Source of the DNA: a virus
Taxonomy: Duplodnaviria; Heunggongvirae; Uroviricota; Caudoviricetes
Direction: 5' to 3' (one strand)
DNA: 51,413 bases
Virus record (IMG/VR): IMGVR_UViG_2563366798_000003
Coordinates: 1 to 51,413 of that record
Shown here piece after piece: positions 1,796-41,600 of this stretch. How positions within the stretch are numbered: position 1 is the stretch's first letter; every line of letters begins with the position of its first letter. The notes below the pieces were generated by a model, which ran no database searches, was not told the DNA's origin, and saw only the letters and a list, made by a program, of their open reading frames with translations. A program made the translations under genes and the position numbers.

Positions 1796-2014
1796 TCACA
1801 GTCCCCATTGTTTGTTCTTAAGTTCGATCTCCTCCTGGCAACTTGCACAAGTCCGACAACCCTGAACGGCCAGGCGTCTTCGTTCATCTATCGGATCGCC
1901 ACACTCACAACAATGAGTGGCAGATATAGCCTGGTGGTTCAGGCGGCGCATTTTTATTGCTGTGTTGCGCTGTAATTCTTCAATTTCTGATGCTGAATCA
2001 ATGATGTCTGCCAT
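1796..2014 (-). CDS. TraR/DksA-type C4 zinc-finger protein
   Basis: 72 aa with CCECGDPI...CRTCASC four-cysteine motif typical of phage TraR/DksA-like zinc fingers. Confidence 0.6.
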   Translation of the reverse strand: MADIIDSASEIEELQRNTAIKMRRLNHQAISATHCCECGDPIDERRRLAVQGCRTCASCQEEIELKNKQWGL

Positions 2015-2112
2015 CTTTCATTAATCCCTGAATTGTTGGTTAATACGCTTGAGGGTGAATGCGAATAATAAAAAAGGAGCCTGTAGCTCCATGATGATTT
2101 TGTTTTTCATGT

Positions 2113-2328
2113 TCACCGTTCCTTAAAGACGCCGTTTAACATGCCGATCGCCAGGCTTAAATGAGTCGGTGTGAATCCCATCAGCGTTACCGTTTCGCGG
2201 TGCTTCTTTAGTACGCTACGGCAAATGTCATTGACGTTTTTATCCGGAAACTGCTGTCTGGCTTTTTTGATTTCATAATTAGCCTGACGGGCAATGCTGC
2301 GAAGGGCGTTATTATGTTCTATTGTCAT
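2113..2328 (-). CDS. hypothetical protein (71 aa from internal ATG; longer 117-aa form would overlap the upstream gene)
   Basis: ORF 2113..2466 in track; ATG at 2328 gives a non-overlapping 71-aa product directly after the stop of the 250-aa gene. Confidence 0.35.
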   Translation of the reverse strand: MTIEHNNALRSIARQANYEIKKARQQFPDKNVNDICRSVLKKHRETVTLMGFTPTHLSLAIGMLNGVFKER

Positions 2329-2335
2329 ATTGGCC

Positions 2336-3088
2336 TCACACTTCGAATGCCAGTTGAGGGGTAAAGACGTCCCGTTCAGCGTTGTAATTAAGTGAACTGG
2401 CACTGTTGAATGATTCAATGCGTTCCACAAGAACTTGCGTACGGGTTTCTTTACTTGCGGGAGCATATGGCGAACCTACCCAGGATTTGTCGATGCCTAT
2501 ATTTCTTGCGACGTTCGTGCTGTCTGCAGACGAAAGCGGTACATGAGTAAAAATGTCTTTATTTAACATCCGTAACCCATGAATCTTGGTGATTGGGTAG
2601 CCGTACTGATCTACAACATGACGTATAAGATCGCGTAGTTTAGCCCGACACGCTCTCGGTCGTTTTGCATCGTATTCCCCCATCGAGCCGATGCAGACGC
2701 GGGGAAACTCATGGCACAGACGAATAAATCGCTCATCCGGTTCGTTCATGTGCCACACCGGAGCACCAATAAATTTACCGTGAGGCCATGCCGCAATCAG
2801 GGCGTCATTCTCTTCACTGGTTCCGCCGATAACATCCGGGATAACCGCGAATGAGAAACGAGGGTGATTACCCCAGCGTTCAACAAATCTGTAATATTCA
2901 TTCCAGTCTATGGCCTTGTTTTTTGTCCAGAATGTGAATGCACCATTATCAAGAGCAAATGATTGGGTGACTTCGGAAGCCAGATCAATCTGAGCTGGAT
3001 TAGCAAAACTGATGAATGCGTGTCTGCCTTTCCAGGCTTTCAACGCACAGGTATCGGGAGTTATTGGACCACCGTGAAAATGAATCAT
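2336..3088 (-). CDS. hypothetical protein (250 aa); weak resemblance to the tRNA-guanine transglycosylase/DpdA D-x-G-G-F motif
   Basis: Long ORF with start overlapping the stop of the upstream micro-ORF (ATGA); contains LDNGAF motif reminiscent of TGT DSGGFQ; no confident family assignment. Confidence 0.7.
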   Translation of the reverse strand: MIHFHGGPITPDTCALKAWKGRHAFISFANPAQIDLASEVTQSFALDNGAFTFWTKNKAIDWNEYYRFVERWGNHPRFSFAVIPDVIGGTSEENDALIAAWPHGKFIGAPVWHMNEPDERFIRLCHEFPRVCIGSMGEYDAKRPRACRAKLRDLIRHVVDQYGYPITKIHGLRMLNKDIFTHVPLSSADSTNVARNIGIDKSWVGSPYAPASKETRTQVLVERIESFNSASSLNYNAERDVFTPQLAFEV

Positions 3089-3243
3089 ACACTCTCCCGT
3101 TTATTATTTATCTCCTCAGCCAGCCGCTGGGCTTTCAGCGGATTTCGGATAACAGAAAGGCCGGGAAATACCCAGCCTCGCTTTGTAACGGAGTAGACGA
3201 AAGTGATCGCGCCTACCCGGATATTATCGTGAGGATGCTTCAT
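3085..3243 (-). CDS. small protein (52 aa), translationally coupled between exo and the 250-aa gene
   Basis: ATG overlaps the exo stop (ATGA) and its stop overlaps the ATG of the next gene (ATGA); a divergent second copy lies at 51059-51154. Confidence 0.4.
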
Positions 3244-3920
3244 TGCCATTGCTCCCCATATACAAAACCAATTTCAGCCAGTGCCTCGTCCATTTTTTCG
3301 ATGAACTCCGGCACCATCTCGTCAAAACTCGCCATGTACTTTTCATTCCGCTCAACCACGACATAATGCAGGCCTTCACGCTTCATGCGCGGGTCATAGT
3401 TGGCAAAGTACCAGGCATCTTTTCGCGTCACCCACATGCTGTACTGCACCTGGGCCATGTAAGCCGATTTTATTGCCTCGAAACCACCGAGCCGGAATTT
3501 CATGAAATCCCGGGAGGTAAACGGGCATTTCAGTTCAAGGCCGTTGCCGTCACTGCATAAACCATCGGGAGAGCAGGCGGTGCGCATACTTTCGTCGCGA
3601 TAGATGATCGGGGATTCAGTAACATTCACGCCGGAAGTGAACTCAAAGAGGGCTCTGGCGTCGTTCTCGTACTGTTTTCCCCAGGCCAGCGCCTTAGCGT
3701 TAACTTCCGGAGCCACACCGGTGCAAACCTCGGCAAGCAGGGTGTGGAAGTAGGACATTTTCATGTCAGGCCATTTCTTTCCGGAGCGGGGTTTTGCTAT
3801 CACATTGTGAACTTCTGAAGCGGTGATGACGCCGAGCCGTAATTTGTGCCACGCATCATCCCCCTGTTCGACAGCTCTCACGTCGATCCCGGTACGCTGC
3901 AGGATAATGTCCGGTGTCAT
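3240..3920 (-). CDS. exo: lambda-type exonuclease (Red alpha)
   Basis: 226-aa ORF matching the lambda Exo sequence from memory almost residue for residue ([50 protein letters not shown]...). Confidence 0.95.
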
Positions 3921-4702
3921 GCAGCCACCTTCTGTTCAGAGGCTTTCTGTTTCAGGAATCCAAGAGCTTTCATTGCTTCTGCCTGTGTCAGTTCTGACGA
4001 TGCGCGAATGTCGCGGCGAAATATCTGGGAACAGAGTGGCAATAAGTCGTCATCCCATGTTTTATCCAGGGCGATCAGCAGAGTGTTAATCTCCTGCATG
4101 GTTTCATCGTTAACCGGAGTGATGTCGCGTTCCGGCTGGCGTTCTGCAGTGTATGCAGTATTTTCGACAATGCGCTCGGCTTCATCCTTGTCATAGATAC
4201 CAGCAAATCCGAAGGCCAGACGGGCACACTGAATCATGGCTTTATGCCGTAACATTCGTTTGGGATGCGACTGCCACGGCCCCGTGATTTCTCTGCCTTC
4301 GCGAGTTTTGAATGGTTCGCGGCGGCATTCATCCATCCATTCGGTAACGCAGATCGGATGATTACGGTCCTTGCGGTAAATCCGGCATGTACAGGATTCA
4401 TTGTCCTGTTCAAAGTCCATGCCGTCAAACTGCTGGTTTTCGTTGATGATGCGGGACCAGCCATCAACGCCCACCACCGGAACGATGCCGTTCTGCTTAT
4501 CAGGGAAGGCGTAAATTTCTTTCGTCCACGGATTAAGGCCGTATTGGTTGGCGACGATCAGCAATGCGATGAACTGCGCATCGCTGGCATCGCCTTTAAA
4601 TGCTGTCTGGCGAAGAGTGGTGATCAGTTCCTGTGGGTCGACAGAATCCATGCCGACACGTTCAGCCAGCTTCCCTGCCAGCGTTGCGAGTGCTGTACTC
4701 AT
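3917..4702 (-). CDS. bet: single-strand annealing protein Bet (Red beta)
   Basis: 261-aa ORF matching lambda Bet ([69 protein letters not shown]...); overlaps exo start by 4 nt. Confidence 0.95.
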
Positions 4703-4707
4703 CCGTT

Positions 4708-5004
4708 TTATACCTCTGAATCAATATCAACCTGATGGTGAGCAATGGTTTCAACCATGTACCGGATGTGTTCTGCCATGCGCTCCTGAAACTCAACATC
4801 GTCATCAAACGCACGGGTAATGGCTTTTTTGCTGGCCCCGTGGCGTTGCAAATGATCGATGCATAGCGATTCAAACAGGTGCTGGGGCAGGCCTTTTTCC
4901 ATGTCGTCTGCCAGTTCTGCCTCTTTCTCTTCACGGGCGATCTGCTGGTAGTGACGCGCCCAGCTTTGAGCCTCAAGACGATCCTGAATGTAATAAGCGT
5001 TCAT
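4708..5004 (-). CDS. gam: RecBCD inhibitor Gam (short GamS-length form)
   Basis: 98-aa ORF matching the C-terminal 98 residues of lambda Gam; AGGAG Shine-Dalgarno 7 nt upstream; in-frame stop at 5059-5061 excludes the long form. Confidence 0.9.
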
Positions 5005-5079
5005 GGCTGAACTCCTGAAAATGGCTGTGAAAATATCGCCCGCTAAATGCCAGGCTGATTAGGTAAACAGGAAAGGGGA

Positions 5080-5286
5080 TTAGTGATTCAGGCCGTTGCC
5101 GCGTCCGTCGAGAAAAACTTCCACGAGCAAATCACGGGTATAAGTGCGCTCGATGCCGCGATGCAGATAAAGCCGTCCGCGTAAATTAGCTGATGCAGTC
5201 CAGGTACCATCTTTGTGTTTGACCAGCATTCCTGGCATGACCGCACCGCGATTAACGGTCTGCGTTCCGTAATGTTGATGAACCAT
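5080..5286 (-). CDS. hypothetical protein (68 aa), first well-supported gene downstream of the pL-like region
   Basis: ATG preceded by AGGAG at optimal spacing; position corresponds to the lambda kil/cIII/N early-left block, but no similarity recognised. Confidence 0.45.
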   Translation of the reverse strand: MVHQHYGTQTVNRGAVMPGMLVKHKDGTWTASANLRGRLYLHRGIERTYTRDLLVEVFLDGRGNGLNH

Positions 5287-5559
5287 AAAAACTCCTGCCC
5301 GTAAGCTGGGCTGCTGAACAAATAAGGGGTTGCGCAGTATCTGGCGGTGGATGGCCGCCGGTTGTCATAACTAAGTCGCCTCGTTGAAGCAACTGAGGTA
5401 TGAAGTGTTGAGTTGATTTCAGCTGGTCACACCGACGTTCACGCGTCCGTTTCACCCCTCGCACTCCCCGGAGCCTGCTGAAATTCAAGCTGCGGATCTA
5501 AGCGGTCATCGCAACGGTGAATCAGGTGGTTGCCGTATCGTTGTGTTGTTGCGACATGG

Positions 5560-5645
5560 TGATAATAGCTATTGCTATTGGTGATATCAATGCTTATTGC
5601 TATTGTTAGATGTGTTTTGCTATTAAATGTTTGATAGCAAAAAGA
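5560..5645 (-). promoter_or_regulatory. putative OL/pL operator-promoter region
   Basis: Three direct copies of TTGCTATT (5572, 5597, 5617) plus inverted ATAGCAA (5634-5640); same half-site recurs in the cI-cro intergenic region. Confidence 0.45.
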
Positions 5646-5730
5646 ATTAATTTTGTAACTTGAATCGCATAGCGATAACTGAAGCGAGGTCGTGGTGGTT
5701 TTTTGAACGGTTTGTGTGATGAGGGGAGGC

Positions 5731-5757
5731 AAAAGAAAACCCGGCACGGTGGCCGGG
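5731..5757 (-). terminator. rho-independent terminator after the 317-aa gene
   Basis: CCCGGC / GCCGGG stem (5740-5745, 5752-5757) followed on the minus strand by a U-run (plus-strand AAAAGAAAA 5731-5739). Confidence 0.5.
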
Positions 5758-5762
5758 TATCT

Positions 5763-6716
5763 TTATTCGAATGGAAGATCTATTTGCCTTTGAGGATTCA
5801 ACTGTTTTTTTACATGCTCAATTTCGAATATGGTTTTTATGGCATCTCCGATCATATATTGAGTTACTTTTAAATCTACAAGTAACATATCACCTTTAGA
5901 AAAATTTAAGGTGTTGTTATCAATATCGCTGATGAATTTCTGGTCTTTTATTTCAGCCAAAAAGCTACTGGCACCATCAGAAAACCGCCACCGGCTTCCT
6001 TCATTGAAGGAAATATTTTTAATTTGAAGGGCTTTCTCTACTGTGTACTCTGAAATTATTGATTCTGCTGGTAGATTGACTTTGAAATAATGTGCTTCTT
6101 GCTTGTTGATCGTCATGAATGTCAAACCATCATCGACAGTAGAGGCAAAGCTGTCAATGCCTTCCTGCTCTAATGGCTTACTTATAACTTCTTGTAATGA
6201 AGAGCGAAGTTTAATATTTTTATAAAGTTCAATAACGTTACTGTCGTAGATCTCGCTTTCGTCATCAACAAAGACTTCGATGTTGCTATCAGGCAAATTG
6301 TGTAATTTTTTTATTTTCCTTGGACCTATCCATTTTATCAGTTGAATTAGGCCTTTGCATATTTTTTCTTTAGAACCAGGACAGAGTCCAATAAAAGCAA
6401 TCAAATTCGCAGCGGCTGTTGCTGAATCGCCGGATAAAAAATCAACAGCCTGTTTGAACCAAGATGTAGATGAGGCAACCAGATCTATTCCAAATGAGCC
6501 AGCTTTAAATGATGCATTGACTTTTACAGAAACAACAGTCTTGTTTCCGTAGAGAGTTTTACCGGCTTCCTCTAATGCATCTGATAGTGATAGAAGGGCA
6601 GGAGCAAGGTCTCGCACGTTCATTTCATGCGTTTCCAGTGCCGGACCGTCGTATACTATCCTGAACTTCATATCATTGGTTTCCGAATTGTTGCCCGCAT
6701 CCATTATGGCATTCAC
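5763..6716 (-). CDS. hypothetical protein (317 aa) in the lysogenic rex slot between cI and pL
   Basis: Long AT-rich ORF on the cI strand, directly downstream of cI and followed by a terminator; no recognisable domain; start ambiguous (ATG at 6716 or 6704). Confidence 0.75.
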   Translation of the reverse strand: MNAIMDAGNNSETNDMKFRIVYDGPALETHEMNVRDLAPALLSLSDALEEAGKTLYGNKTVVSVKVNASFKAGSFGIDLVASSTSWFKQAVDFLSGDSATAAANLIAFIGLCPGSKEKICKGLIQLIKWIGPRKIKKLHNLPDSNIEVFVDDESEIYDSNVIELYKNIKLRSSLQEVISKPLEQEGIDSFASTVDDGLTFMTINKQEAHYFKVNLPAESIISEYTVEKALQIKNISFNEGSRWRFSDGASSFLAEIKDQKFISDIDNNTLNFSKGDMLLVDLKVTQYMIGDAIKTIFEIEHVKKQLNPQRQIDLPFE

Positions 6717-6777
6717 CTGATCACATATACAGTTAATTTACGATATTGTCTTAAATCTTAAAACTTCTATTGTATGG

Positions 6778-7506
6778 CTACCCATGCTTCCTATACGTCT
6801 GCGGCATGCTCCCAATAACCTTACCGAAGATGAACACCCGGTTCATCTCGTCTTTCTCGATCGGGTCCCAAGGTGAGTAGCTCTTGTTATCAGAGATAAC
6901 CAGCAGCTTATCCTTCATCATTTGCAGACGCTTTACATGGGCTGTGTCGTCGTACAGAAACGCATAGATACCATCACCGTCGAAAGATTTAACCGTGATA
7001 TCAACGAACAGCAGATCACCTGGTTCGATCGTTCCTGACATGCTGTCACCACGCACGTTAATGATGCGGATATTTTCCGCCTTCCTGCCATCGAACATGT
7101 GACGAGCATCGTCAAACGAGTACTCAACCGAGCGTAGAACTTCTACAAACTCACGATTGATGACACCCGGCCCGGCACTGACTTCTATATCAAGAACGTC
7201 AATCTTGAAGTATTTGGAATGGTTGACAGCAGGCTTCCCTGATTGTTGACCGTCATTTCTCATCGGGCCTATGCCTGATGAGAGCCACTCAGTTCGAACA
7301 CCCAATGCATTAGCTATTTCAACAATTTTTGTTGAGCCGCGCGCGTTGCCGCTTGTCAGTCTCCAGATTGTGGGTTGAGCTACGCCAGACGCCTTTGCAA
7401 GAGCGCCTTGAGACATTCCAGATTGTTCCATCGCTAGGTTTAAGCGATCAGCAAGAGTTTCTTTTTTCATAAGTTTTAATTTATACGCTCGCGTATTGAT
7501 GGTCAA
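6778..7506 (-). CDS. cI: CI-type repressor (HTH + S24 LexA-like peptidase domain)
   Basis: 242 aa; N-terminal HTH (MSQGALAKASGVAQPTIWRL), C-terminal S24 signature GDSM and putative Ala-Gly cleavage site; divergent from the Cro-like gene. Confidence 0.9.
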   Translation of the reverse strand: MTINTRAYKLKLMKKETLADRLNLAMEQSGMSQGALAKASGVAQPTIWRLTSGNARGSTKIVEIANALGVRTEWLSSGIGPMRNDGQQSGKPAVNHSKYFKIDVLDIEVSAGPGVINREFVEVLRSVEYSFDDARHMFDGRKAENIRIINVRGDSMSGTIEPGDLLFVDITVKSFDGDGIYAFLYDDTAHVKRLQMMKDKLLVISDNKSYSPWDPIEKDEMNRVFIFGKVIGSMPQTYRKHG

Positions 7507-7580
7507 AACACGTTTTGCTATTGATTGGGTTAATACGCATTGCTATTATCTATTCATTGCAATACCAATAGGAATTGATA
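7507..7580. promoter_or_regulatory. putative OR/pR/pRM operator region
   Basis: Divergent cI/cro intergenic region with near-palindrome CAAAACACGTTTTG (7506-7519) and two TTGCTATT half-sites. Confidence 0.5.
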
Positions 7581-7808
7581 ATGACAAATCAAACCATTCA
7601 ACTCGCAATCAGTATTACAGGTAGTCAAAAACGACTGGCAGATCTATGCGGTGTAGCCCAACCCACTGTTTGGCGTTGGCTACACGGTGGCGGAATTGAT
7701 GCCCGCTATGTAATGAAAATTGTCTCAGCCACTGGTGGAAAGATTAAACCAGCAGATATTCGTCCCGACCTCGCACCATTGTTTAACGCGAGTAATTCTG
7801 CCGCCTAA
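7581..7808 (+). CDS. cro: Cro-like HTH regulator
   Basis: 75 aa from ATG at 7581 (AGGAA SD upstream); HTH QKRLADLCGVAQPTVWRW; divergently transcribed from cI. Confidence 0.75.
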   Translation: MTNQTIQLAISITGSQKRLADLCGVAQPTVWRWLHGGGIDARYVMKIVSATGGKIKPADIRPDLAPLFNASNSAA

Positions 7809-7832
7809 ACTGCGGCGTTAACTGATAAGGCA

Positions 7833-8378
7833 ATGACTATGCAATCACTTACATACCAACAGACTAGCGGATTTAGCCCGACTGCGGTGATAAATCGTTC
7901 TCAAACAAAACAGGCGCCAGGCCACGAAAAAATCCGTGATGCCGTTCGCGCCTGGTCGGCTGCAGATAATCAGGATGTTGTTGCCGCACTCATTGTGAAT
8001 GAGTATCGGGAGCAGGGCGGCGGCACCATCGATTTCCCTGATGATGTCAGCCGTGCACGCCAGAAGCTGTTCCGCTTCCTCGATAACAAATTCGATTCTG
8101 AAAAATACCGAAATAACGTGCGTGAACTGACCCCGGCAATTCTGGCGGTACTACCGCTGGAATATCGCGGCCACCTGGTTGGGCAGGATAGCTTCATGGC
8201 TCGGCTGGCTGAAATGGAAAAGGAACTCAGTGAGGCAAAACAGGCTGTCATTCTCAACGCACCACGCCACCAGAAACTGAAGGAGATGAGTGAAGGCATT
8301 GTGTCGATGTTTCGTGTGGACCCGGATCTGGCTGGTCCACTGATGGCGATGGTCACCACCATGCTGGGGGCAATATGA
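7833..8378 (+). CDS. early regulatory protein in the cII position (181 aa)
   Basis: ORF between cro and O; larger than lambda CII and not recognisably homologous. Confidence 0.55.
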   Translation: MTMQSLTYQQTSGFSPTAVINRSQTKQAPGHEKIRDAVRAWSAADNQDVVAALIVNEYREQGGGTIDFPDDVSRARQKLFRFLDNKFDSEKYRNNVRELTPAILAVLPLEYRGHLVGQDSFMARLAEMEKELSEAKQAVILNAPRHQKLKEMSEGIVSMFRVDPDLAGPLMAMVTTMLGAI

Positions 8379-8464
8379 CAGGTTCAGAAATGGCGAAAGC
8401 CGGTCTGCGCGAACAGAACCGACTTTCAGGTGCAAATCGTAACACACTCATTGCGGGAGGAATT

Positions 8465-9394
8465 ATGGCAAACACTGCTGAGATATTCAATTTTCCAGTG
8501 CCGGATGTGGCACAAAAGGAGCCGCGCGTGGCAGATCTCGATGATGGTTATACGCGCATTGCAAATGAGTTGCTGGAAGCTGTAATGCTGGCCGGATTAA
8601 AACAGCACCAGCTTCTGGTCTTCCTGGCTGTCATGCGCAAAACATATGGCTTTAATAAAAAACTGGATTGGGTGAGCAACGAGCAACTTTCCGAATTGAC
8701 CGGGATATTGCCGCACAAGTGTTCTGCTGCAAAAAGCGTTCTGGTAAAGCGTGGGATTCTTATTCAGAGCGGGCGGAATATCGGCATCAATAATGTGGTC
8801 AGTGAATGGTCAACATTACCCGAATCAGGTAAGAAAAATAAAGTTTACCTGAAAGAGGTAAATTTACCTGAGTCAGGTAAGAAAAGTTTACCCAAATCAG
8901 GTAAAGGCACTTACCCGAATCAGGTAAACACAAAAGACAAACTAACAAAAGACAATATAAAACCTTTTTCGTCCGAGAATTCTGACGAATCCTCTGACCA
9001 GCCAGAAAATGCCCTTCCTGTGGTGAAACCGGATGCTGCGATTCAGAGCGGCAGCAAGTGGGGGACAGCAGAAGACCTGACCGCCGCAGAGTGGATGTTT
9101 GACATGGTGAAGACCATCGCGCCATCAGCCAGAAAACCGAATTTTGCAGGGTGGGCTAACGATATTCGCCTGATGCGTGAACGTGACGGACGTAACCACC
9201 GCGACATGTGCGTGCTGTTCCGCTGGGCATGCCAGGACAACTTCTGGTCCGGTAACGTGCTAAGTCCGGCCAAACTCCGCGACAAGTGGACCCAACTCGA
9301 AATCAACCGTAACAAGCAACAGGCTGGCGTGACAGCCGGAAAACCAAAACTCGACCTGACGAACACTGACTGGATTTACGGGGTGGAGCTATGA
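8465..9394 (+). CDS. O: replication initiator O (divergent N-terminal DNA-binding domain, lambda-like C-terminus)
   Basis: C-terminal about 110 residues match lambda O (SDESSDQPEN...WIYGVEL); GGGAGG SD before ATG at 8465; iterons inside the gene. Confidence 0.85.
   Translation: MANTAEIFNFPVPDVAQKEPRVADLDDGYTRIANELLEAVMLAGLKQHQLLVFLAVMRKTYGFNKKLDWVSNEQLSELTGILPHKCSAAKSVLVKRGILIQSGRNIGINNVVSEWSTLPESGKKNKVYLKEVNLPESGKKSLPKSGKGTYPNQVNTKDKLTKDNIKPFSSENSDESSDQPENALPVVKPDAAIQSGSKWGTAEDLTAAEWMFDMVKTIAPSARKPNFAGWANDIRLMRERDGRNHRDMCVLFRWACQDNFWSGNVLSPAKLRDKWTQLEINRNKQQAGVTAGKPKLDLTNTDWIYGVEL
8817..8965 (+). repeat. ori iterons plus AT-rich tract within O
   Basis: Four about 18-bp direct repeats TTACC(C/T)(G/A)A(A/G)TCAGGTAA(G/A) at 8817, 8864, 8888, 8911 plus partial copy at 8843, followed by A-rich stretch 8930-8965. 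Confidence 0.75.
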
Positions 9395-10092
9395 AAAACA
9401 TCGCCGCACAGATGGTTAATTTTGACCGTGAGCAGATGCGCCGGATCGCCAATAACATGCCGGAACAGTACGACGAAAAGCCGCAGGTACAGCAGGTAGC
9501 GCAGATTATCAATGGTGTGTTCAGCCAGTTACTGGCAACTTTCCCGGCGAGCCTGGCTAACCGGGACCAGAATGAACTGAACGAAATCCGCCGCCAGTGG
9601 GTTCTGGCTTTCCGGGAAAATGGGATCACCACGATGGAACAGGTTAACGCAGGAATGCGCGTAGCCCGTCGGCAGAATCGACCATTCCTGCCATCACCCG
9701 GGCAGTTTGTTGCCTGGTGCCGGGAAGAAGCATCCGTTAACGCCGGGCTGCCAAACGTCAGCGAGCTGGTTGATATGGTCTATGAGTATTGTCGGAAGCG
9801 TGGCCTGTATCCGGATGCAGAGTCTTATCCGTGGAAATCAAACGCGCACTACTGGCTGGTTACCAACCTGTACCAGAACATGCGGGCCAATGCGCTTACT
9901 GATGCGGAATTACGGCGCAAGGCTGCCGATGAACTGACTTGTATGACCGCGCGAATTAACCGTGGTGAGGCGATACCTGAACCAGTAAAACAACTTCCTG
10001 TCATGGGCGGTAGACCTCTAAATCGTGCACAGGCTCTGGCGAAGATCGCAGAAATCAAAGCGAAGTTCGGACTGAAAGGAGCAACTGTATGA
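9391..10092 (+). CDS. P: replication protein P (DnaB helicase loader)
   Basis: 233 aa matching lambda P (MKNIAAQMVNFDREQMRRIANNMPEQYDEKPQVQQVAQIINGVFSQLLATFPASLANRDQNE...); ATGA overlap with O. Confidence 0.95.
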   Translation: MKNIAAQMVNFDREQMRRIANNMPEQYDEKPQVQQVAQIINGVFSQLLATFPASLANRDQNELNEIRRQWVLAFRENGITTMEQVNAGMRVARRQNRPFLPSPGQFVAWCREEASVNAGLPNVSELVDMVYEYCRKRGLYPDAESYPWKSNAHYWLVTNLYQNMRANALTDAELRRKAADELTCMTARINRGEAIPEPVKQLPVMGGRPLNRAQALAKIAEIKAKFGLKGATV

Positions 10093-10385
10093 CGGGCAAA
10101 GAGGCAATTATTCATTATCTGGAGACGCACAAGAGCTTCTGTACGCCGGACGTTGCTGCGACAACAGGTGTGACATTAACCAGCATAAATCAGGCTGCGG
10201 CAAAAATGGCGCGGGCAGGAATCCTGGTCATTGATGGTAAGGTCTGGCGAACGGTGTATTACCGGTTCGCTACTAGAGAAGAACGGGAAGGAAAGGTGAG
10301 CACGAACCTGATTTTTAAGGAGTGTCGCCAGAGTGCCGCGATGAAGCGGGTGTTGGCGGTATATGGGAGATTAGTTATTACTTGA
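10089..10385 (+). CDS. ren: Ren exclusion protein
   Basis: 98 aa matching lambda Ren (MTGKEAIIHYL...REEREGK...KECRQSAAMKRVLAVYG); overlaps P stop. Confidence 0.9.
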   Translation: MTGKEAIIHYLETHKSFCTPDVAATTGVTLTSINQAAAKMARAGILVIDGKVWRTVYYRFATREEREGKVSTNLIFKECRQSAAMKRVLAVYGRLVIT

Positions 10386-10741
10386 TTTGATGGTTATCTC
10401 GAAAACATCCAATCAAATTTAATGGTTTGCTTTGTGCGGGGAACTATAACAATGTTTCTAGCTTGGTGCTGTATGAATTAGTGAATTAGTAGGGAATATA
10501 TCCACACATTGATTAACACAAAAATATTTCAGATATTAAATGTAACTCAAAGGATGAGTAATAATGGTTGTGTAGCGTATAACAGGATGCTGAGGTAGTA
10601 TTAAACAATGAATAAATCTGATTGACAAGCACCAGATAATACTGCGGGTCAATCATTAGACATGAACGCCACTAGTTACTGAGAGTAACTAATGGCGTTG
10701 TGTTTATAGTTAAGATGTTTTTTTAAAACATCAGGGGGGCT

Positions 10742-12289
10742 CTACTTGTCTTTTTTAATATGTTCAATCTCATCATTAAGACATTTATCTATTTTTTTTA
10801 TTAACACATTAATTTCTTCGGTGTTTTGGAGTTGAGTTGTCTTAGAAACAAAAACTCGAATAAAGAATTTAACATAGTGATAGGGTTGAAGTACATCGTT
10901 ATACTTACATAAATCATTTATTGTATACTTGCCGCCTGTTTCTTTTTTTATTATTTTAGCTTGACTTGTATCGATATCTTTAAAGTTATCTTCAATCTGA
11001 AAATCAAGAACCCATTCATCTCCTTTTAAATTATCCTCAATGATTTTGTTGATTTTCTTAGATATATTTTGTTTATATTCTTTGTATCTGTTGTCGGAAA
11101 TGTTAACATTAGAAAACGTGTGTTTTTTTTCATATATTTTTTTCCAAACATTTCTATCAACAATATCTTGAATTATAGCTTGAGAATTTTTATCTAATGT
11201 GTTTTTAAGAGTGTTTTCTAAAAACGTTTTGTCTGGGTTTTCACGATAAAAGTGTTTGATGGACTCAATGAGAGTGTTTTTAGATTTTAAAGAGACAACA
11301 TCATCAGTTTTTTTTCTAGAACACGCTTTGTTAAGCATCGCAGATAGTGCACGATTGGTCTTATGAAAATAAACTTGACTATAAAGCCCACTTCTTGCAT
11401 TGGCAAATTCTAGTATTGAATCCATACCACTTTCTTTATATGCCAGGTAAACACTATTTTCAACTTTCACAGGAATAAATGACATTAATAATCGTCCATA
11501 ATCATAAATCCCATATTTAACGCCGGAGAAGTAGCTATCTCTAAGTAGGTAGTCCATTCTGTCCGCATCTATAGGTGAAGATGATATGATTGAACATAAT
11601 AAAGGATATACATTTACTCCCTCAATGTTATTTTTAAAATCATATCTTTTATCAACAATTTTTATAATGCTTTCTGGATTAATAGCCGCTATGTTTTCTT
11701 TATAGACATCGTCGTCATTTGATTTATCTTGGGCTTCATTTTTTAATTCTTCAATAATTTCTTTAATAAAAATACATGATACTTGTTCGTGGGTTAACTT
11801 GTCATTATCACTTAAAGATATAATCTTATCGTATTGTTTATTTCCTTCAGTTTTGCATTTTTCTTTGAAATCTTTTACGGATATTGCAAAACTATCGAAT
11901 TGGTGGGCAAGTGGGCCATGCCCAACATCGTGTAACAATGCTGCAATACGTAACTCCTGTATAAGACTTGAAGGCATTTTTTTTATATCTAAATATAGAT
12001 CAATGCCCATATTTTTTCGGTCATAAATTAATGCATTCAAATTTATATTTTTCAAAATCTCATACGATAAATGCATTACACCGACAGAGTGTTCAAAGCG
12101 AGAGTGCATTGCAGAAGGAAATACTTTATATAGAAACGTGTTCTGCCTGATATCTCGTAGTCGTTGGAATAAAGGATGGTCAATTATCTTTTTTTCTAGC
12201 TTAGTTATTCGAATCACTCCATGTATGGGATCTAAAAACTTCCCCAGAAGTAAGTCTTCAAAGTTCTCAAGTTTGTTTTTGTTTGTCAT
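10742..12289 (-). CDS. HD-domain phosphohydrolase, Dgt/SAMHD1-like putative dNTP triphosphohydrolase
   Basis: 515 aa; motifs H-x-x-H (HSRFEHSVGVMH), HD (LLHDVGHGPLAH) and D-x-D-R-x-D-Y-x-x-R-D (DADRMDYLLRDSYFSG); AAGGAAAG SD; strongly AT-rich, opposite strand to flanking phage genes. Confidence 0.85.
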   Translation of the reverse strand: MTNKNKLENFEDLLLGKFLDPIHGVIRITKLEKKIIDHPLFQRLRDIRQNTFLYKVFPSAMHSRFEHSVGVMHLSYEILKNINLNALIYDRKNMGIDLYLDIKKMPSSLIQELRIAALLHDVGHGPLAHQFDSFAISVKDFKEKCKTEGNKQYDKIISLSDNDKLTHEQVSCIFIKEIIEELKNEAQDKSNDDDVYKENIAAINPESIIKIVDKRYDFKNNIEGVNVYPLLCSIISSSPIDADRMDYLLRDSYFSGVKYGIYDYGRLLMSFIPVKVENSVYLAYKESGMDSILEFANARSGLYSQVYFHKTNRALSAMLNKACSRKKTDDVVSLKSKNTLIESIKHFYRENPDKTFLENTLKNTLDKNSQAIIQDIVDRNVWKKIYEKKHTFSNVNISDNRYKEYKQNISKKINKIIEDNLKGDEWVLDFQIEDNFKDIDTSQAKIIKKETGGKYTINDLCKYNDVLQPYHYVKFFIRVFVSKTTQLQNTEEINVLIKKIDKCLNDEIEHIKKDK

Positions 12290-12648
12290 GAGGCTTTCCT
12301 TTTGCTGTAGTTATAATACGAAATTTAAATAGTAATGATGTTTATAGTTTCAATGTGTTATCTAATGGTTAACACATTGTGATGTAGCATATCAATATGG
12401 ATTCATATGTTCAATTGGTCTGTGGAGTTTAGTTATGAATAAGATTGATTCTGGTAATACTTTGTAGTTTAAGCTAGAGGCGGGATTCGTGATGTTCAAA
12501 TCAGTATGTAATGGAGGTTGTGCATTAGTACTTGCTGCTGGAAATTAAAAATAAAGTTGCAAGTAATCGACGTTTTCCGGGAGGAGGATGTAAGCATCGC
12601 TGACCAAAAAGTATCAACGATGCCTGTTTTGTTTTAACTACAAATTAA

Positions 12649-14151
12649 TTAAATTGCATCTGCAAACTCTGTGATTTTTCGCTCAAGTATGATTGATGAG
12701 TTGCTGTTGTCGATTTTTTTATTTTCATGATTACGAATAGCCAATGACTCATTAAAGTCTTTTGCGACTGCTGTCTCAATAAATTCAATTTCTGAATCAG
12801 AGTGTTTTTTAACAGCTTCTTTGATCTCATCCAGAGTAACATAGAAAAACTCTTTTCTACGATTTACAAGATTGACTCTCTTTTTATCGAAGACATCATG
12901 TAGTTTTTTTTCTAATGATGGAGCGTCCTCCGAATAAATCATGGCATGCACATCAAAAATAAAAGGAACAGATGCATCACCAAGCTCATTTACACGGTCT
13001 TGTGGATCAAGACGTCGTGTCATGCCTATTTTATAAACATTCTCCCCAAAAGAACCTATGTTCGAAATAATATAAACATGACCTTGTTTGGTTTGTTGTG
13101 CCATGGATAATGCTCTTTGATGCTTTGATTCAGCCTGCGACAAACTCTGTTCTAGTTCGGCAATGCGATTTTCGAGGCGCTGCTTCATGTCACCAGTAAC
13201 TTTTTCCATTTCCTTTCTTGCAGCTTCAATTGCTTTTTTATAACGGCGCTCTTCTGCCTCTGCGTCTTGCATGGCCTTTTCTATTTCTCGTTGTGCACGC
13301 TCCTCCTCTCTCATTTGTGCCCTTATTTCTGCCTGTTCTTCTTTTTCTTTCTGTTTTTGCTCACGATATTCATGGGTAAGCCACAACTCCTCAAGTTTTT
13401 TATTAAGGTATTTAGTATTTATATATATGTGATTTTGCTCGTTTAGTTTATTTATGGCCTCAAATGCCTTTGTGATGCGTTCTTCCATTTTAGTGATATT
13501 TTTCCACGTGCAATTACTAATTGCAGCATCACATTCATTATTAAATGCTCTAGTAGTTAGCCTAATATTTCTGTCTGTCATTTTTTTACCCTCTGCTCGA
13601 GAGCCTTCAACAGTCCATTGGGTTGTGCAATATACTGCACCAGAGTGGGTTTTATCCCGCAGCATTAATTTCTGTTCATCCCTGATGGATTTTATTTTGT
13701 TTTTAAATTGCTCTGAATCTTCAAAATTAAAATGAGGTTCGTAAAATCCTAGTTCGGCTAGTTCAACATCTTCTGAATAAATAGAAATTTGCTTTACTAG
13801 CTTATCATATATTTCTTTCTTCTCTTTATAAGTTCTTCTTAGTTCTTGGATTTGTTTATTGATACCATCCATTTTTTCAATGGTGTTTGTTAGTTCATTA
13901 TTGGCATTTTCTTTTACTTTTTGGGACTCTTCTTTTATAATGGAGCATTCTTGCTCTGTTTTCTCAATAAGCTTCTTACATTCCTCTTCCACATTAAAAT
14001 AATCTGCAAAGCGAGATTTGTATTCTTCATTTTTTTGATTGCTATCACTTAATTCTAATTGTATTTTTTTGATGCGTTTGATTGCAGCTATATATAGAAC
14101 AAGAACAACCAATAAAAATATGATTGCAAGTAATAGTGGAGTTTGAGTCAT
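12649..14151 (-). CDS. membrane-anchored coiled-coil protein with C-terminal T5orf172/GIY-YIG-like domain
   Basis: 500 aa; N-terminal hydrophobic helix (LLLAIIFLLVVLVLYIAAI), long charged coiled-coil segments, C-terminal GHVYIISN...VYKIGMT...VPFIFDVHAMIY motif; AAGGA SD. Confidence 0.8.
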   Translation of the reverse strand: MTQTPLLLAIIFLLVVLVLYIAAIKRIKKIQLELSDSNQKNEEYKSRFADYFNVEEECKKLIEKTEQECSIIKEESQKVKENANNELTNTIEKMDGINKQIQELRRTYKEKKEIYDKLVKQISIYSEDVELAELGFYEPHFNFEDSEQFKNKIKSIRDEQKLMLRDKTHSGAVYCTTQWTVEGSRAEGKKMTDRNIRLTTRAFNNECDAAISNCTWKNITKMEERITKAFEAINKLNEQNHIYINTKYLNKKLEELWLTHEYREQKQKEKEEQAEIRAQMREEERAQREIEKAMQDAEAEERRYKKAIEAARKEMEKVTGDMKQRLENRIAELEQSLSQAESKHQRALSMAQQTKQGHVYIISNIGSFGENVYKIGMTRRLDPQDRVNELGDASVPFIFDVHAMIYSEDAPSLEKKLHDVFDKKRVNLVNRRKEFFYVTLDEIKEAVKKHSDSEIEFIETAVAKDFNESLAIRNHENKKIDNSNSSIILERKITEFADAI

Positions 14152-14577
14152 TCGTGCTATTCCTTACGGACAATTTAAGACGTTTTGTATTAAATCCTGT
14201 TCAATGTGTATGCGGGTGATTGCTACCGCTTACAATCTTCATAATTATCAGTTAGATAGACTCGCTAGTAAATAATTTCATTTTTTGCAATATTCTTATT
14301 GAATATTTCAATTTATGAAATGAACTCTTTATCCTTTCAAGGCGAAAGGTTTCTTCTTCGGAAATATTTGCTCTCGTGTGACGTATAAAGGCCTTTGATT
14401 TTTAAAAAACAGTAGGGAATAATATAGTTACTGTCGGCCTGAACACCCGGCGGTGGGGTTGCGCTAAACGGGGACGTTTATGCGCACATACAATCTAAAC
14501 TCTCTTCTCCCTTCACAGATGCAGAAATGCACCTGCGATTTTTTGCATCCAACGTTTGACCTCTGCGGAGGTGAAGC

Positions 14578-15033
14578 GTGAACCTACCACAAGATGGCAT
14601 CAAATTACATCGCGGCAACTTTACCGCTATCGGCCAGCAGATCCAGCCTTATCTGGAGGACGGAAAATGCTTTCGCATGGTGCTTAAACCGTGGCGTGAG
14701 AAACGCAGTCTTTCCCAGAATGCACTCAGCCACATGTGGTACAGCGAAATCAGTGAATACCTTATCAGCAGGGGGAAATCGTTCGCTACCGCAGCATGGG
14801 TAAAAGAAGCTCTCAAACACACATACCTCGGTTATGAAACCAAAGAACTGGTTGATGTCGTAACCGGTGAAATCACCACTATCCAGTCGTTACGCCATAC
14901 CTCCGATCTTGATACCGGAGAGATGTATGTCTTCCTGTGTAAGGTTGAAGCCTGGGCGATGAATATTGGCTGCCACCTGACTATTCCGCAGAGCTGCGAG
15001 TTCCAGCAGCTCCGCGACAAGCAGGAGGCGTAA
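14578..15033 (+). CDS. ybcN: YbcN-family protein (DLP12 nin-region homolog)
   Basis: 151 aa, GTG start with GGAGGTGAA SD; sequence matches my recollection of DLP12 YbcN. Confidence 0.75.
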
Positions 15034-15203
15034 TGGCTACACCGCTTATTCGTGTCATGAACGGACACATCTACAGAGTACCAAATCGTCGTAAGCGTAA
15101 ACCTGAGCTGAAGCCTTCCGAAATACCAACACTGCTCGGATATACCGCCAGCCTGGTTGATAAAAAATGGTTGCGACTGGCAGCAAGGAGGAATCATGGC
15201 TGA
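15033..15203 (+). CDS. ninE: NinE protein
   Basis: 56-aa ORF ([56 protein letters not shown]) overlapping the ybcN stop (TAATG). Confidence 0.7.
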   Translation: MATPLIRVMNGHIYRVPNRRKRKPELKPSEIPTLLGYTASLVDKKWLRLAARRNHG

Positions 15204-15486
15204 TTTGAGAAAAGCAGCGCGTGGTCGGGAATGCCAGGTAAGAATCCCTGGCGTATGTAATGGCAACCCTGAAACGTCTGTACTGGCACATATCCGGCTG
15301 GCTGGATTGTGCGGCACCGGTATTAAACCGCCAGACCTGATTGCCACCATTGCATGTTCTGCCTGTCACGATGAGATCGACCGTCGCACGAATTTTGTTA
15401 ACGCTGGATATGCAAAAGAATGCGCGCTGGAAGGTATGGCGAGAACGCAGGTTATCTGGCTGAAAGAGGGGGTAATTAAGGCGTGA
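15196..15486 (+). CDS. ybcO: YbcO-family protein (DUF1364, putative nuclease)
   Basis: 96 aa from [23 protein letters not shown]..., cysteine-rich, matches DLP12 YbcO from memory. Confidence 0.8.
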
Positions 15487-15845
15487 ATACTTACCACATC
15501 ACACTACCCTGGCCGCCGAGCAATAACCGCTACTACCGCCATAATCGCGGGCGCACACACATCAGCGCAGAAGGGCAGGCATACCGCGATAACGTCACCC
15601 GAATCATTAAAAACGCAATGCTGGATATCGGCCTGGCTATGCCAGTGAAAATCCGTATTGAGTGCCACATGCCGGATCGCCGTCGCCGTGACCTGGATAA
15701 TCTGCAAAAAGCCGCTTTTGACGCACTCACCAAAGCAGGTTTCTGGCTGGATGATGCTCAGGTCGTTGATTACCGCGTTGTGAAGATGCCTGTTACCAAA
15801 GGTGGGAGGCTGGAACTGACCATCACCGAAATGGGGAATGAATGA
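15483..15845 (+). CDS. rusA: Holliday junction resolvase RusA
   Basis: 120 aa matching RusA ([36 protein letters not shown]...); overlaps ybcO stop. Confidence 0.9.
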
Positions 15846-15982
15846 TGTTTGAGTTTTATATGGCAGAACTTCTTCGCCACCGCTGGGGGCGTCTGCGCTT
15901 ATATCGTTTCCCCGGTTCTGTTTTGACCGATTACCGAATACTGAAGAATTACGCCAAAACCCTGACAGGAGCAGGAGTATGA
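15842..15982 (+). CDS. ylcG: small protein YlcG
   Basis: 46-aa ORF ([46 protein letters not shown]) overlapping the rusA stop (ATGA). Confidence 0.6.
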
Positions 15983-38696: not shown

Positions 38697-41600
38697 ATGG
38701 GTAAAGGCAGCAGTAAGGGGCATATCCCGCGCGAAGCGAAGGACAACCTGAAGTCCACGCAGCTGCTGAGTGTGATCGATGCCATCAGCGAAGGGCCGGT
38801 TGAAGGTCCGGTGGATGGATTAAAAAGCGTGCTGCTGAACAGTACGCCGGTGCTGGACAGTGAGGGGAATACCAATATATCCGGCGTCACGGTGGTGTTC
38901 CGGGCCGGTGAGCAGGAGCAGACACCGCCGGAGGGATTTGAATCCTCCGGCTCCGAGACGGTGCTCGGTACAGAAGTGAAATATGACACGCCGATCACCC
39001 GGACCATCACGTCGGCAAACATTGACCGTCTGCGTTTTACTTTCGGCGTGCAGGCACTGGTGGAAACCACCTCAAAGGGTGACCGGAATCCGTCGGAAGT
39101 CCGCCTGCTGGTTCAGATACAACGTAACGGTGGCTGGGTGACGGAAAAAGACATCACCATTAAGGGTAAAACCACTTCACAGTATCTGGCCTCGGTGGTG
39201 GTGGATAACCTGCCGCCGCGCCCGTTCAGTATCCGGATGCGCAGGATGACGCCGGACAGCACCACAGACCAGCTGCAGAACAAAACGCTCTGGTCGTCAT
39301 ACACCGAAATTATCGATGTGAAACAGTGCTACCCGAACACGGCACTGGTCGGCGTGCAGGTGGACTCGGAGCAGTTCGGCAGTCAGCAGGTGAGCCGTAA
39401 TTATCATCTGCGCGGGCGTATTCTGCAGGTGCCGTCGAATTATAACCCGCAGACGCGGCAATACAGCGGTATCTGGGACGGAACGTTTAAACCGGCATAC
39501 AGCAACAACATGGCCTGGTGTCTGTGGGATATGCTGACCCATCCGCGCTACGGCATGGGGAAACGTCTTGGTGCGGCGGATGTGGATAAATGGGCGCTGT
39601 ATGTCATCGGCCAGTACTGCGACCAGTCAGTGCCGGACGGCTTTGGCGGCACGGAGCCGCGCATCACCTGTAATGCGTACCTGACCACACAGCGCAAGGC
39701 GTGGGATGTGCTCAGTGATTTCTGCTCGGCGATGCGCTGTATGCCGGTATGGAACGGGCAGACGCTGACGTTCGTGCAGGACCGACCATCAGATAAGGTG
39801 TGGACCTATAACCGCAGTAATGTGGTGATGCCGGATGATGGCGCGCCGTTCCGCTACAGCTTCAGCGCCCTGAAGGACCGCCATAATGCCGTTGAGGTGA
39901 ACTGGATTGACCCGAACAACGGCTGGGAGACGGCGACAGAGCTCGTGGAGGATACGCAGGCCATTGCCCGTTACGGCCGTAACGTCACGAAGATGGATGC
40001 CTTTGGCTGTACCAGTCGGGGGCAGGCACACCGCGCCGGGCTGTGGCTGATTAAAACGGAGCTGCTGGAAACGCAGACCGTGGACTTCAGCGTGGGTGCT
40101 GAAGGGCTTCGCCATGTACCGGGGGATGTCATTGAAATCTGCGATGATGACTATGCCGGTATCAGCATCGGTGGGCGTGTGCTGGCGGTGAACAGCCAGA
40201 CCCGGACGCTGACGCTCGACCGTGAAATCACGCTGCCATCCTCCGGCACCACGCTGATAAGCCTGGTTGACGGGCAGGGGAATCCGGTCAGCGTGGAGGT
40301 CCAGTCCGTCACCGACGGTGTGAAGGTGAAAGTGAGCCGTGTTCCTGACGGCGTTGCCGGATACAGCGTGTGGGGGCTGAAGCTGCCGATGCTGCGCCAG
40401 CGCCTGTTCCGCTGTGTGAGTATCCGTGAGAACGATGACGGCACGTATGCCATCACTGCCGTGCAGCATGTACCGGAGAAAGAAGCCATCGTGGATAACG
40501 GGGCGTACTTTGACGGCGACCAGAGCGGAACGGTGAACGGTGTCACGCCGCCCGCGGTGCAGCACCTGACTGCAGAAGTCACCGCAGACAGCGGGGAATA
40601 CCAGGTGCTGGCGCGCTGGGACACGCCGAAGGTGGTGAAGGGGGGGAGCTTTATGCTTCGCCTGACCGTGGCAGCGGATGACGGCAGTGAGCGGCTGGTC
40701 AGCACGGCCAGGACGACGGAAACCACATACCGCTTCAGGCAACTGGCGCTGGGGAACTACAGGCTGACAGTCCGGGCGGTAAATGCGTGGGGGCAGCAGG
40801 GCGATCCGGCGTCGGTATCGTTCCGGATTGCCGCACCGGCAGCACCGTCGCAGATTGAGCTGACGCCGGGCTATTTTCAGATAACCGCCACGCCGCATCT
40901 TGCCGTTTATGATCCGACGGTACAGTTTGAGTTCTGGTTCTCGGAAAAGCGGATTGCGGATATCAGGCAGGTTGAAACCACAGCCAGCTATCTTGGCACG
41001 GCGCTGTACTGGATAGCTGCCAGTATCAATATTAAGCCGGGTCATGATTATTATTTTTACGTTCGCAGTGTGAACACCGTTGGCAAATCGGCATTCGTGG
41101 AGGCTGTCGGTCGGGCGAGCGATGATGCGGAAGGTTACCTGGATTTTTTCAAAGGCCAGATAACCGAATCCCATCTCGGCAAGGAGCTGCTGGAAAAAGT
41201 CGAGCTGACGGAGGATAACGCCAGCAAACTGGAGGAGTTTTCGAAAGAGTGGAAAGACGCCAACGATAAATGGAATGCCATGTGGGGCGTCAAAATTGAG
41301 CAGACCGAAGACGGCAGGCATTATGTCGCGGGGCTTGGCCTCAGCATGGAGGATACGGAGGAAGGCAAACTGAGCCAGTTTCTGGTTGCCGCTAACCGTA
41401 TCGCGTTTATTGACCCGGCAAACGGGAATGAAACGCCGATGTTTGTGGCGCAGGGCAACCAGATATTCATGAACGACGTGTTCCTGAAGTATCTGACGGC
41501 TCCCACCATTACCAGCGGCGGCAATCCTCCGGTATTTTCCCTGACACCGGACGGGCGGCTGACGGCGAAAAATGCCGATATCAGCGGTAACGTGAATGCG

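Follow-up and report, generated by a model that had tools for sequence, protein, structure and literature searches.

A lambdoid O gene that joins a non-lambda DNA-binding half and five iterons to a lambda-type C-terminal half

Introduction

Is an O gene whose C-terminal half is nearly that of phage lambda and whose N-terminal half is not a newly made hybrid, or an established natural allele? The gene described here raises this question. Lambdoid O proteins have been known to be modular since the late 1970s: the N-terminus and its iterons are type-specific, and the C-terminus, through which O contacts the helicase loader, can be exchanged. In lambda, O dimers bind each iteron via the N-terminal half, the O complex bends the DNA and, on a supercoiled template, opens the A+T-rich region beside the iterons, and the C-terminal half brings in P–DnaB (PMC5043065, PMC6022878, PMC7466680). 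A preliminary description of the 51,413-nt viral sequence analysed here (the window) had proposed a module swap that gave O a non-lambda N-terminus and its own iterons. We followed up this proposal by comparing the window with the O genes and origins of lambda, 434, 933W, phi80, P22, Salmonella SEN34, Klebsiella GZ7 and mEpX1, and by surveying related loci in E. coli genomes, phage records and IMG/VR.

Results

The O gene and its surroundings

Positions 8465–9394 coincide exactly with the O reading frame, a single frame of 309 codons encoding 309 aa. Its ATG at 8465 has GGGAGGA 5' of it, and its stop overlaps the start of P in the sequence ATGA.

8465–9394, + strand: O gene, encoding the origin-binding replication initiator, with an internal origin (open reading frame, translation, Pfam)
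8375–8464, + strand: upstream in-frame extension to the O start used in databases (339-aa version, 1,020 bp; RefSeq and phage annotations)
8525–8809, + strand: coding region of the non-lambda-type N-terminal Phage_rep_O DNA-binding domain (Pfam, aa 21–115)
8975–9391, + strand: coding region of the lambda-type C-terminal domain (aa 171–309)
9391–10092, + strand: P gene, encoding the helicase loader, translationally coupled to O via ATGA (PF06992, E = 8.8e-62)

Pfam matched Phage_rep_O (PF04492) to aa 21–115 of O with full profile coverage (E = 4.3e-34; 117 bits, against a cut-off of 28.7 bits). A PDB sequence search with the O protein returned no solved relative.

The two versions of the protein differ in their start codon. 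An MxNTA motif forms the start of O in lambda, GZ7, SEN34, mEpX1 and phi80, and it aligns with position 8465. By this alignment, the O start in public annotations appears to be placed 90 nt too early and the extension is probably untranslated. The extension also passes through an oop-like hairpin seen in the predicted fold, which lies within a further candidate feature.

8385–8490, − strand: candidate oop/M3-like antisense RNA unit (predicted from a promoter scan and the fold)

The promoter scan placed a candidate promoter, TTGAAT-17-CATAAT, across the O start on the minus strand, and the fold contains a strong hairpin within about 8390–8435 followed by a weak U-containing tail. The unit occupies the position of lambda oop and of the annotated phi80 M3 RNA. 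An Rfam scan of 7400–10500 matched no family, so the oop-like RNA has no support from any model.

Upstream of O, Pfam identified a minus-strand S24/LexA-type repressor, a YdaS/Cro-like protein and a 181-aa YdaT-domain protein, the cII analogue, which is 67% identical to phi80 cII. A ren-sized open reading frame follows P. The region is the early-right operon of a lambdoid prophage.

Two observations concern neighbouring cargo. A gene beside cI matches a PADLOC defence candidate. The ren–ybcN slot is a variable cargo site; in the window, it is occupied by an AT-rich island that carries a gene for PD-Lambda-1 defence and another for an HD-domain protein.

Identity to lambda changes abruptly within O

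Alignment with lambda bore out the split reported at the outset, a nearly lambda C-terminus beneath a differing DNA-binding half. Residues 171–309, homologous to lambda O residues of about 160–299 and corresponding to the half that binds P in lambda (PMC6022878), are 96% identical to lambda O (134/139), as compared with 41% over residues 1–170 (70/170). Over the N-domain proper (aa 1–116), the alignment that the preliminary description had suggested was carried out for lambda and phi80 and gave identities of 47% and 38%, respectively. The adjacent P protein shares 229 of its 233 residues with lambda P (~98%).

At the DNA level the change is sharp. Identity to lambda jumps from about 50% to about 95% at 8928; blastn aligned window positions 8928–10366 to lambda at 93.5% identity over 1,440 bp and found no lambda similarity left of 8928. 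Megablast matches to phage and E. coli records with a lambda-type O likewise begin at query positions 449–464, equivalent to window positions 8915–8928.

The abruptness of this change could suggest that a new hybrid O arose when lambda recently recombined with a second phage, either in this strain or in its close ancestry. We regard such an event as highly improbable. The shared segment is 93.5% identical to lambda rather than nearly 100%, so that no recent swap involving lambda is indicated. Moreover, the same junction is found in 2,368 genomes, 16 phage records and 80 IMG/VR loci, and the flanking immunity region is likewise non-lambda. The preliminary description had confined the non-lambda part to the N-terminal half of O, which proved too narrow, because cI, cro and the cII analogue to its left are also non-lambda.

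The words 'hybrid' and 'module swap' apply in part. The N-terminal half and iterons are non-lambda, the C-terminal half and P are lambda-type, and GZ7 demonstrates that the halves can be exchanged (see below), but the terms hold only relative to lambda as the reference. A recent swap is disfavoured, and the allele is the commonest in E. coli (2,368 of 5,426 genomes, versus 1,325 for the lambda N-type). In part, too, this is a known O/ori type: the iterons and N-terminus are about 97–98% identical to those of 16 sequenced phage records. The gene is a mosaic relative to lambda, yet it is an abundant natural allele and not a new or recent hybrid.

Five dyad-symmetric iterons within O

Four to five iterons of about 18 bp had been noticed initially; the array resolves into five copies with a 17-bp core.

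8816–8832: iteron 1, TTACCCGAATCAGGTAA; extra copy without a positional counterpart in lambda, starting 29 bp before iteron 2
8845–8861: iteron 2, TTACCTGAAAGAGGTAA; corresponds in position to lambda iteron 1
8864–8880: iteron 3, TTACCTGAGTCAGGTAA; self-complementary at 16 of 17 positions
8888–8904: iteron 4, TTACCCAAATCAGGTAA
8911–8927: iteron 5, TTACCCGAATCAGGTAA

All five lie within O and share the dyad-symmetric form TTACC-N7-GGTAA (consensus TTACCYRARWSAGGTAA), with 12–16 of the 17 positions self-complementary in each copy. Start-to-start spacings are 29, 19, 24 and 23 bp. The TTACCYRARWSAGGTAA pattern occurs nowhere else in the 51-kb window, and 100 shuffles produced 0 matches, giving no chance expectation. 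At iteron 3 the window reads GAGTC, versus GAATC in 77 of 80 related loci. As the preliminary description had supposed, these are not lambda iterons, and the comparison it called for shows that they also differ from the phi80, P22, SEN34 and mEpX1 types.

The spacing of iterons 2–5 (19, 24 and 23 bp) reproduces that of lambda iterons 1–4 (20, 24 and 23 bp) and of the P22 array (20, 24 and 23 bp), which identifies iteron 1 as an extra upstream copy. This extra iteron makes the window O 10 residues longer than lambda O. Iteron number varies naturally: O of the Stx phage 933W/P27 has six iterons, and the extra copies lengthen the O linker (PMC7466680).

The array also encodes a Lys/Ser/Gly/Pro-rich stretch that joins the two domains, and one could therefore imagine that the repeats are simply a low-complexity, LPESGKK-like peptide linker with no origin function. 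This is most improbable on several grounds. Because the iterons start in codon phases 0, 2, 0, 0 and 2, the peptides that they encode are not alike (LPESGK, VYLKEV, TYPNQV); what repeats is the DNA and not the peptide. Each copy is dyad-symmetric in DNA. Their spacing is that of the lambda and P22 origins, and a conserved A-rich tract directly follows the array.

Sequence diversity argues in the same direction. Across 66 distinct haplotypes, representing 75 full-length copies (IMG/VR and phage records), the iteron cores have a nucleotide diversity of 0.0056 and the spacers one of 0.050, a roughly 9-fold difference that rests on closely related haplotypes and few sites (85 core and 30 spacer positions). 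Third-codon-position diversity in the same haplotypes is lower in the iteron cores (0.0088) than in the flanking coding sequence, where it reaches 0.035 for the N-domain and 0.077 for the C-domain. The lower diversity of the iteron cores fits selection acting on the DNA sequence itself.

An A-rich tract marks the module boundary

The array is followed by the A-rich tract that had been pointed out beforehand, and by a second conserved element.

8928–8964, + strand: A-rich tract ACACAAAAGACAAACTAACAAAAGACAATATAAAACC, mosaic module boundary and presumed unwinding element (24 A in 37 nt)
8965–8999, + strand: conserved box TTCGTCCGAGAATTCTGACGAATCCTCTGACC, right of the A-rich tract in origins with a P-type loader (lambda, phi80, SEN34)

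The tract aligns with the AT-rich region of lambda. Its core, ACACAAAAGACA..ACAAAAGA, is common to lambda, P22, GZ7, SEN34 and mEpX1 and is looser in phi80; in all seven origin types compared, it follows the last iteron. Sequences to its right vary with the loader. TTCGTC.GAGAATTCTG.CGAATCCTCTGAC is common to lambda, the window, SEN34 and phi80, the phages with a P or P-like loader, and the box TTCGTCCGAGAATTCTGACGAATCCTCTGACC is absent from the GZ7, mEpX1 and P22 origins. Right of the A-rich core, a C-rich box is common to GZ7 and mEpX1, both of which have DnaC-type loaders, and P22 has a sequence of its own at this position.

As judged from these alignments, the origin is laid out with a type-specific left, a universal A-rich centre and a partner-specific right, and the mosaic junction falls in the universal centre. 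Since the A-rich tract is common to all the lambdoid origins, homologous recombination has a patch on which to act. The boundary at this universally conserved tract explains how initiator specificity and helicase-loader type are reassorted.

The allele is abundant in E. coli prophages

We next surveyed how widely this O gene is distributed. The whole gene is present, at ≥80% query coverage, in 2,368 of 5,426 complete E. coli genomes (about 44%), mostly at 95–99% identity (2,342 E. coli records fall in this band). Searched alone, the N-terminal half of the window O was found in 2,297 E. coli genomes and lambda's own N-terminal half in 1,325. The window-type O is the commonest O allele in E. coli, and the lambda origin type is a minority there, with the window type nearly twice as frequent.

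The exact protein is public under the name 'replication protein', in its 339-aa form on 292 contigs and in its 309-aa form on 129, and its 90%-identity cluster has 7,825 members. Sixteen phage records carry O at about 97% identity, 15 of them full-length at 96.6–97.7% and one, D2, covering 77%; the phages with this allele include Lambda_4C10, 4A7, Perceval, 1W, 3W and the PhiR series (PhiR68_2). In the two records inspected for taxonomy, 1W and Lambda_4C10, the classification is Bievrevirus. Every one of the 80 IMG/VR loci returned carries the allele at ≥94% identity, and 79 of the 80 have five iterons with identical spacing. One E. coli chromosome, that of strain 2013C-3264, is 100% identical over the O gene and 98.4% identical over window positions 1830–10366. 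This O allele, as a sequence, is thus already known: it has been sequenced thousands of times and annotated. It illustrates a textbook principle and carries little weight as a discovery.

In every context inspected, the O module sits with ybcN-ninE-ybcO-rusA-ylcG-Q, which is the nin/Q region found in DLP12, a cryptic prophage of K-12. Between the window nin region (14460–15972) and that of phage 82 (record X92588), identity is 96.2%. K-12 Rac was also considered as a source of the widespread matches and was rejected, its ydaU encoding a DUF1376 protein and not O.

Discussion

We interpret the locus, with a probability of roughly 90%, as a replication module from a lambdoid prophage of the DLP12/phage-82-like (Bievrevirus) lineage, in which a lambda-style O gene with an embedded origin precedes P. 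On the lambda model, the N-terminal Phage_rep_O domain would bind the five TTACC-N7-GGTAA iterons as dimers, and the resulting O–iteron nucleoprotein complex, formed on supercoiled DNA that rightward transcription has activated, would open the A-rich tract. The lambda-type C-terminal domain would then recruit the P–DnaB complex, a step that can safely be inferred given that the C-domain and P are 96% and 98% identical to those of lambda. The N-domain and iterons would constitute one co-evolving specificity module and the C-domain and P a second, with the A-rich tract joining them. We would expect the N-domain to bind its own iterons and not those of lambda, giving a changed origin specificity. 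Origin firing, O–iteron binding and O–P contact are accordingly ascribed to the window allele by analogy, and by homology the module is probably functional.

The DLP12 lineage includes many defective prophages, and K-12 Rac, the only K-12 prophage checked, has no match to the window O type. It might be argued from this that the module is no longer active and persists as a relic in a cryptic prophage. We consider this unlikely, because the genes O, P and ren are intact, with translational coupling between them, and because the genome records of phages such as 1W, 3W, Perceval and the PhiR series contain O at about 97% identity, with five iterons in the copies inspected. The window may, even so, be a defective prophage that carries an intact module without using it.

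A sharper version of the replication-module interpretation is that this is the classical phage 82 type (O82/ori82), studied in 1978–81 through lambda–82 hybrids and origin sequencing. The ori82 sequence of Moore et al. reportedly has five repeats. Type-specific replication was defined from the origins of three phages, and 82 is among them (early papers cited in PMC6022878, PMC3349717, PMC5043065). The only phage 82 record in the collection is X92588, to which the window nin region is closely similar as noted above; ybcN of DLP12 shares 97% identity with the corresponding gene of phage 82 (PMC4118853), and the O allele accompanies an 82-like nin/Q region in every context inspected. Furth & Yates 1978 (cited in PMC6022878) dealt, by its title, with viable hybrids whose O protein had its N-terminus from 82 and its C-terminus from lambda. 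Viability of such hybrids implies that 82 and lambda share the region right of the origin, as the window allele does with lambda. The lambda record itself has two misc_recomb marks inside O, at 39157/8 and 39165/6, without notes. Against this assignment, no phage 82 record was among the phage records matching the N-terminal half, and the literature and phage records searched for a published ori82 or O82 sequence yielded citations only. Lambdoid phages are mosaic, and a shared nin region is no proof of a shared replication module; for this reason we put the odds of the 82 type at about even.

Should the module not be of the 82 type, the commonest O/origin specificity of E. coli prophages might never have been studied biochemically, a possibility that we hold to be doubtful. 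If it were so, the window and P22 would offer a natural pair, having the same half-sites with a 7-bp or a 5–6-bp spacer and N-domains that are 58% identical. With such a pair, one could ask how half-site spacing is read by the dimer of an O-type initiator, and whether prophages that share a host keep their origins from cross-talk by this means.

Comparison with known origin systems

The origin types compared are given below, each with its iteron and the identity of its N-domain (aa 1–116) to that of the window.

GZ7: TTACC-N7-GGTAA, measured spacings of 29, 19 and 24 bp matching those of the window; 85%
SEN34: TTAGC-N7-GCTAA; 62%
P22: TTACC-N5/6-GGTAA; 58%
mEpX1: TGTCTC..GAGACA; 52%
Lambda: TCCCTC..GAGGGA (N5/6 spacer); 47%
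phi80: TTCCCG-AAAA-CGGGAA; 38%

The presumed recognition helix, assigned from its alignment position, reads LPHKCSAAKS in the window and in GZ7 and differs in every other type compared. This stretch and the iteron half-site co-vary, with lambda, phi80, SEN34 and mEpX1 each differing in both. Because a profile search of IMG/VR returned only the window allele (≥94% identity), the comparison of helix and iteron draws on the seven named phages.

With lambda, the window shares gene order, O–P coupling, an origin within O and dyad-symmetric iterons followed by an A-rich tract, after which comes the same GAGAATTC..CTCTGAC box. It differs in having five TTACC-N7-GGTAA iterons in place of four TCCCTC-N5/6-GAGGGA iterons, and in its upstream cII analogue, a phi80-like YdaT-domain protein. 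The window is not a member of the ori-lambda type (lambda, 434 and 933W; iterons ATCCCTCAAAACGAGGGA), given its unrelated iterons and 47% N-domain identity. Stx phage 933W has lambda-type iterons and a lambda-type N-domain and differs from the window in the same respects. Nor does the window belong to the phi80 gp15 type (iterons TTCCCGAAAACGGGAA), from which it differs in its iterons and, at 38% identity, in its N-domain.

P22 gene 18 and ori-P22 resemble the window in their TTACC/GGTAA half-sites, iteron spacing and A-rich core. However, the P22 half-sites are separated by 5–6 bp rather than 7 bp, its iterons number four, its C-terminus is unrelated (14% identity), and gene 12, not P, comes next; gp12 of P22 is a DnaB-type helicase (PMC8022706). 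With like half-sites, a different spacer, an N-domain at 58% and this C-terminus, the window falls outside the ori-P22/gp18 type.

The closest relatives are the Bievrevirus/DLP12-like phages. PhiR68_2 and 1W are 96–97% identical to the window from cI to ren, and the five iterons are kept in the copies inspected. These phages differ from the window by a few substitutions, such as GAATC in place of GAGTC in iteron 3, and in their ren–ybcN cargo. With ≥95% nucleotide identity over the whole gene and iteron spacings of 29, 19, 24 and 23 bp, the window O falls within the Bievrevirus/DLP12-like allele.

Klebsiella phage GZ7 bears directly on the modularity of O. It has an N-domain 85% identical to that of the window, a five-iteron array of the same type and the same A-rich core. 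In contrast, its C-terminal domain is unrelated (17% identity) and the gene that follows encodes a DnaC/DnaI-type loader. By joining a window-type N-domain and iterons to an unrelated C-terminus, GZ7 indicates that the two halves of O are exchangeable modules.

Candidate defence genes between ren and ybcN

Between ren, downstream of O and P, and ybcN, where the nin region begins, lies an AT-rich island (GC ~30%, window 10600-14200) containing two adjoining genes.

10742-12289, minus strand: HD-domain protein, 515 aa (PF01966; sub-threshold HD_assoc_2 match)
12649-14151, minus strand: PD-Lambda-1-like ORF, 500 aa (full-length match to the PADLOC model PD-Lambda-1, E 5e-198)

The 500-aa ORF also carries DUF4041 and T5orf172/MUG113 domains. 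Given its PADLOC match, these domains and its place in the low-GC island, it looks like an anti-phage defence gene carried by the prophage. Its HD-domain neighbour, for which the PADLOC dGTPase match is weak only (E 9e-4), could either act as PD-Lambda-1's partner or be another defence gene in its own right. The ren-ybcN interval is a hypervariable cargo slot.

Cargo between ren and ybcN
Window: HD + PD-Lambda-1
PhiR68_2: emrE-ybcK-ybcL-ybcM
NC101: DUF4145 + theta pseudogene
ET670: TagO

Genes beside the repressor and at the cro and cII positions

5763-6716, minus strand: ORF beside the cI-like repressor, 317 aa (PADLOC candidate PDC-S42, E 3e-86)
7833-8378, plus strand: cII-position gene, 181-aa YdaT-domain protein

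The 317-aa ORF occupies the rexAB position at a GC content of ~35-37%, and Pfam yielded no domain in it. At the cII position, the YdaT-domain protein is labelled 'toxin YdaT' in RefSeq and is 67% identical to phi80 cII; a YdaS-like gene sits at the cro position. The Pfam 'toxin' names probably mislead for these YdaT/YdaS-type genes, which would here be lysis-lysogeny regulators.

The start of O and a variant iteron

RefSeq and phage records start the replication initiator gene O 90 nt upstream (window 8375-8464, plus strand), yielding a 339-aa version that runs over the cII analogue's stop codon. When aligned, the O proteins of lambda, phi80, GZ7, SEN34 and mEpX1 favour ATG 8465 rather than 8375 as the true start, as does a GGGAGGA ribosome-binding site. 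Overlapping this start codon is a predicted minus-strand promoter, TTGAAT-17-CATAAT, and downstream of it a strong hairpin, GAAAGUCGGUUCUG...CAGACCGGCUUUC, occupies the intergenic space that separates O from the cII analogue.

8385-8490, minus strand: candidate antisense RNA resembling lambda oop and phi80 M3 (promoter + hairpin)

No Rfam family matched this candidate. Within O, iteron 3 (window 8864-8880) reads TTACCTGAGTCAGGTAA, as against TTACCTGAATCAGGTAA in 77 of 80 related IMG/VR loci, and its G variant brings the copy closer to a palindrome (16/17 positions).

Relation to phage 82 and GZ7

From orf151/ybcN to rus, the nin region (window 14460-15972) is 96.2% identical to that of phage 82 (X92588).

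L009 1501-2355: O of Klebsiella phage GZ7

The O gene of GZ7 has the same array of five iterons as the window O, and the two N-domains are 85% identical, but the C-terminus of GZ7 O belongs to the kind that works with a DnaC-family loader. GZ7 O is a case in which the specificity module has been reassorted naturally between genera.
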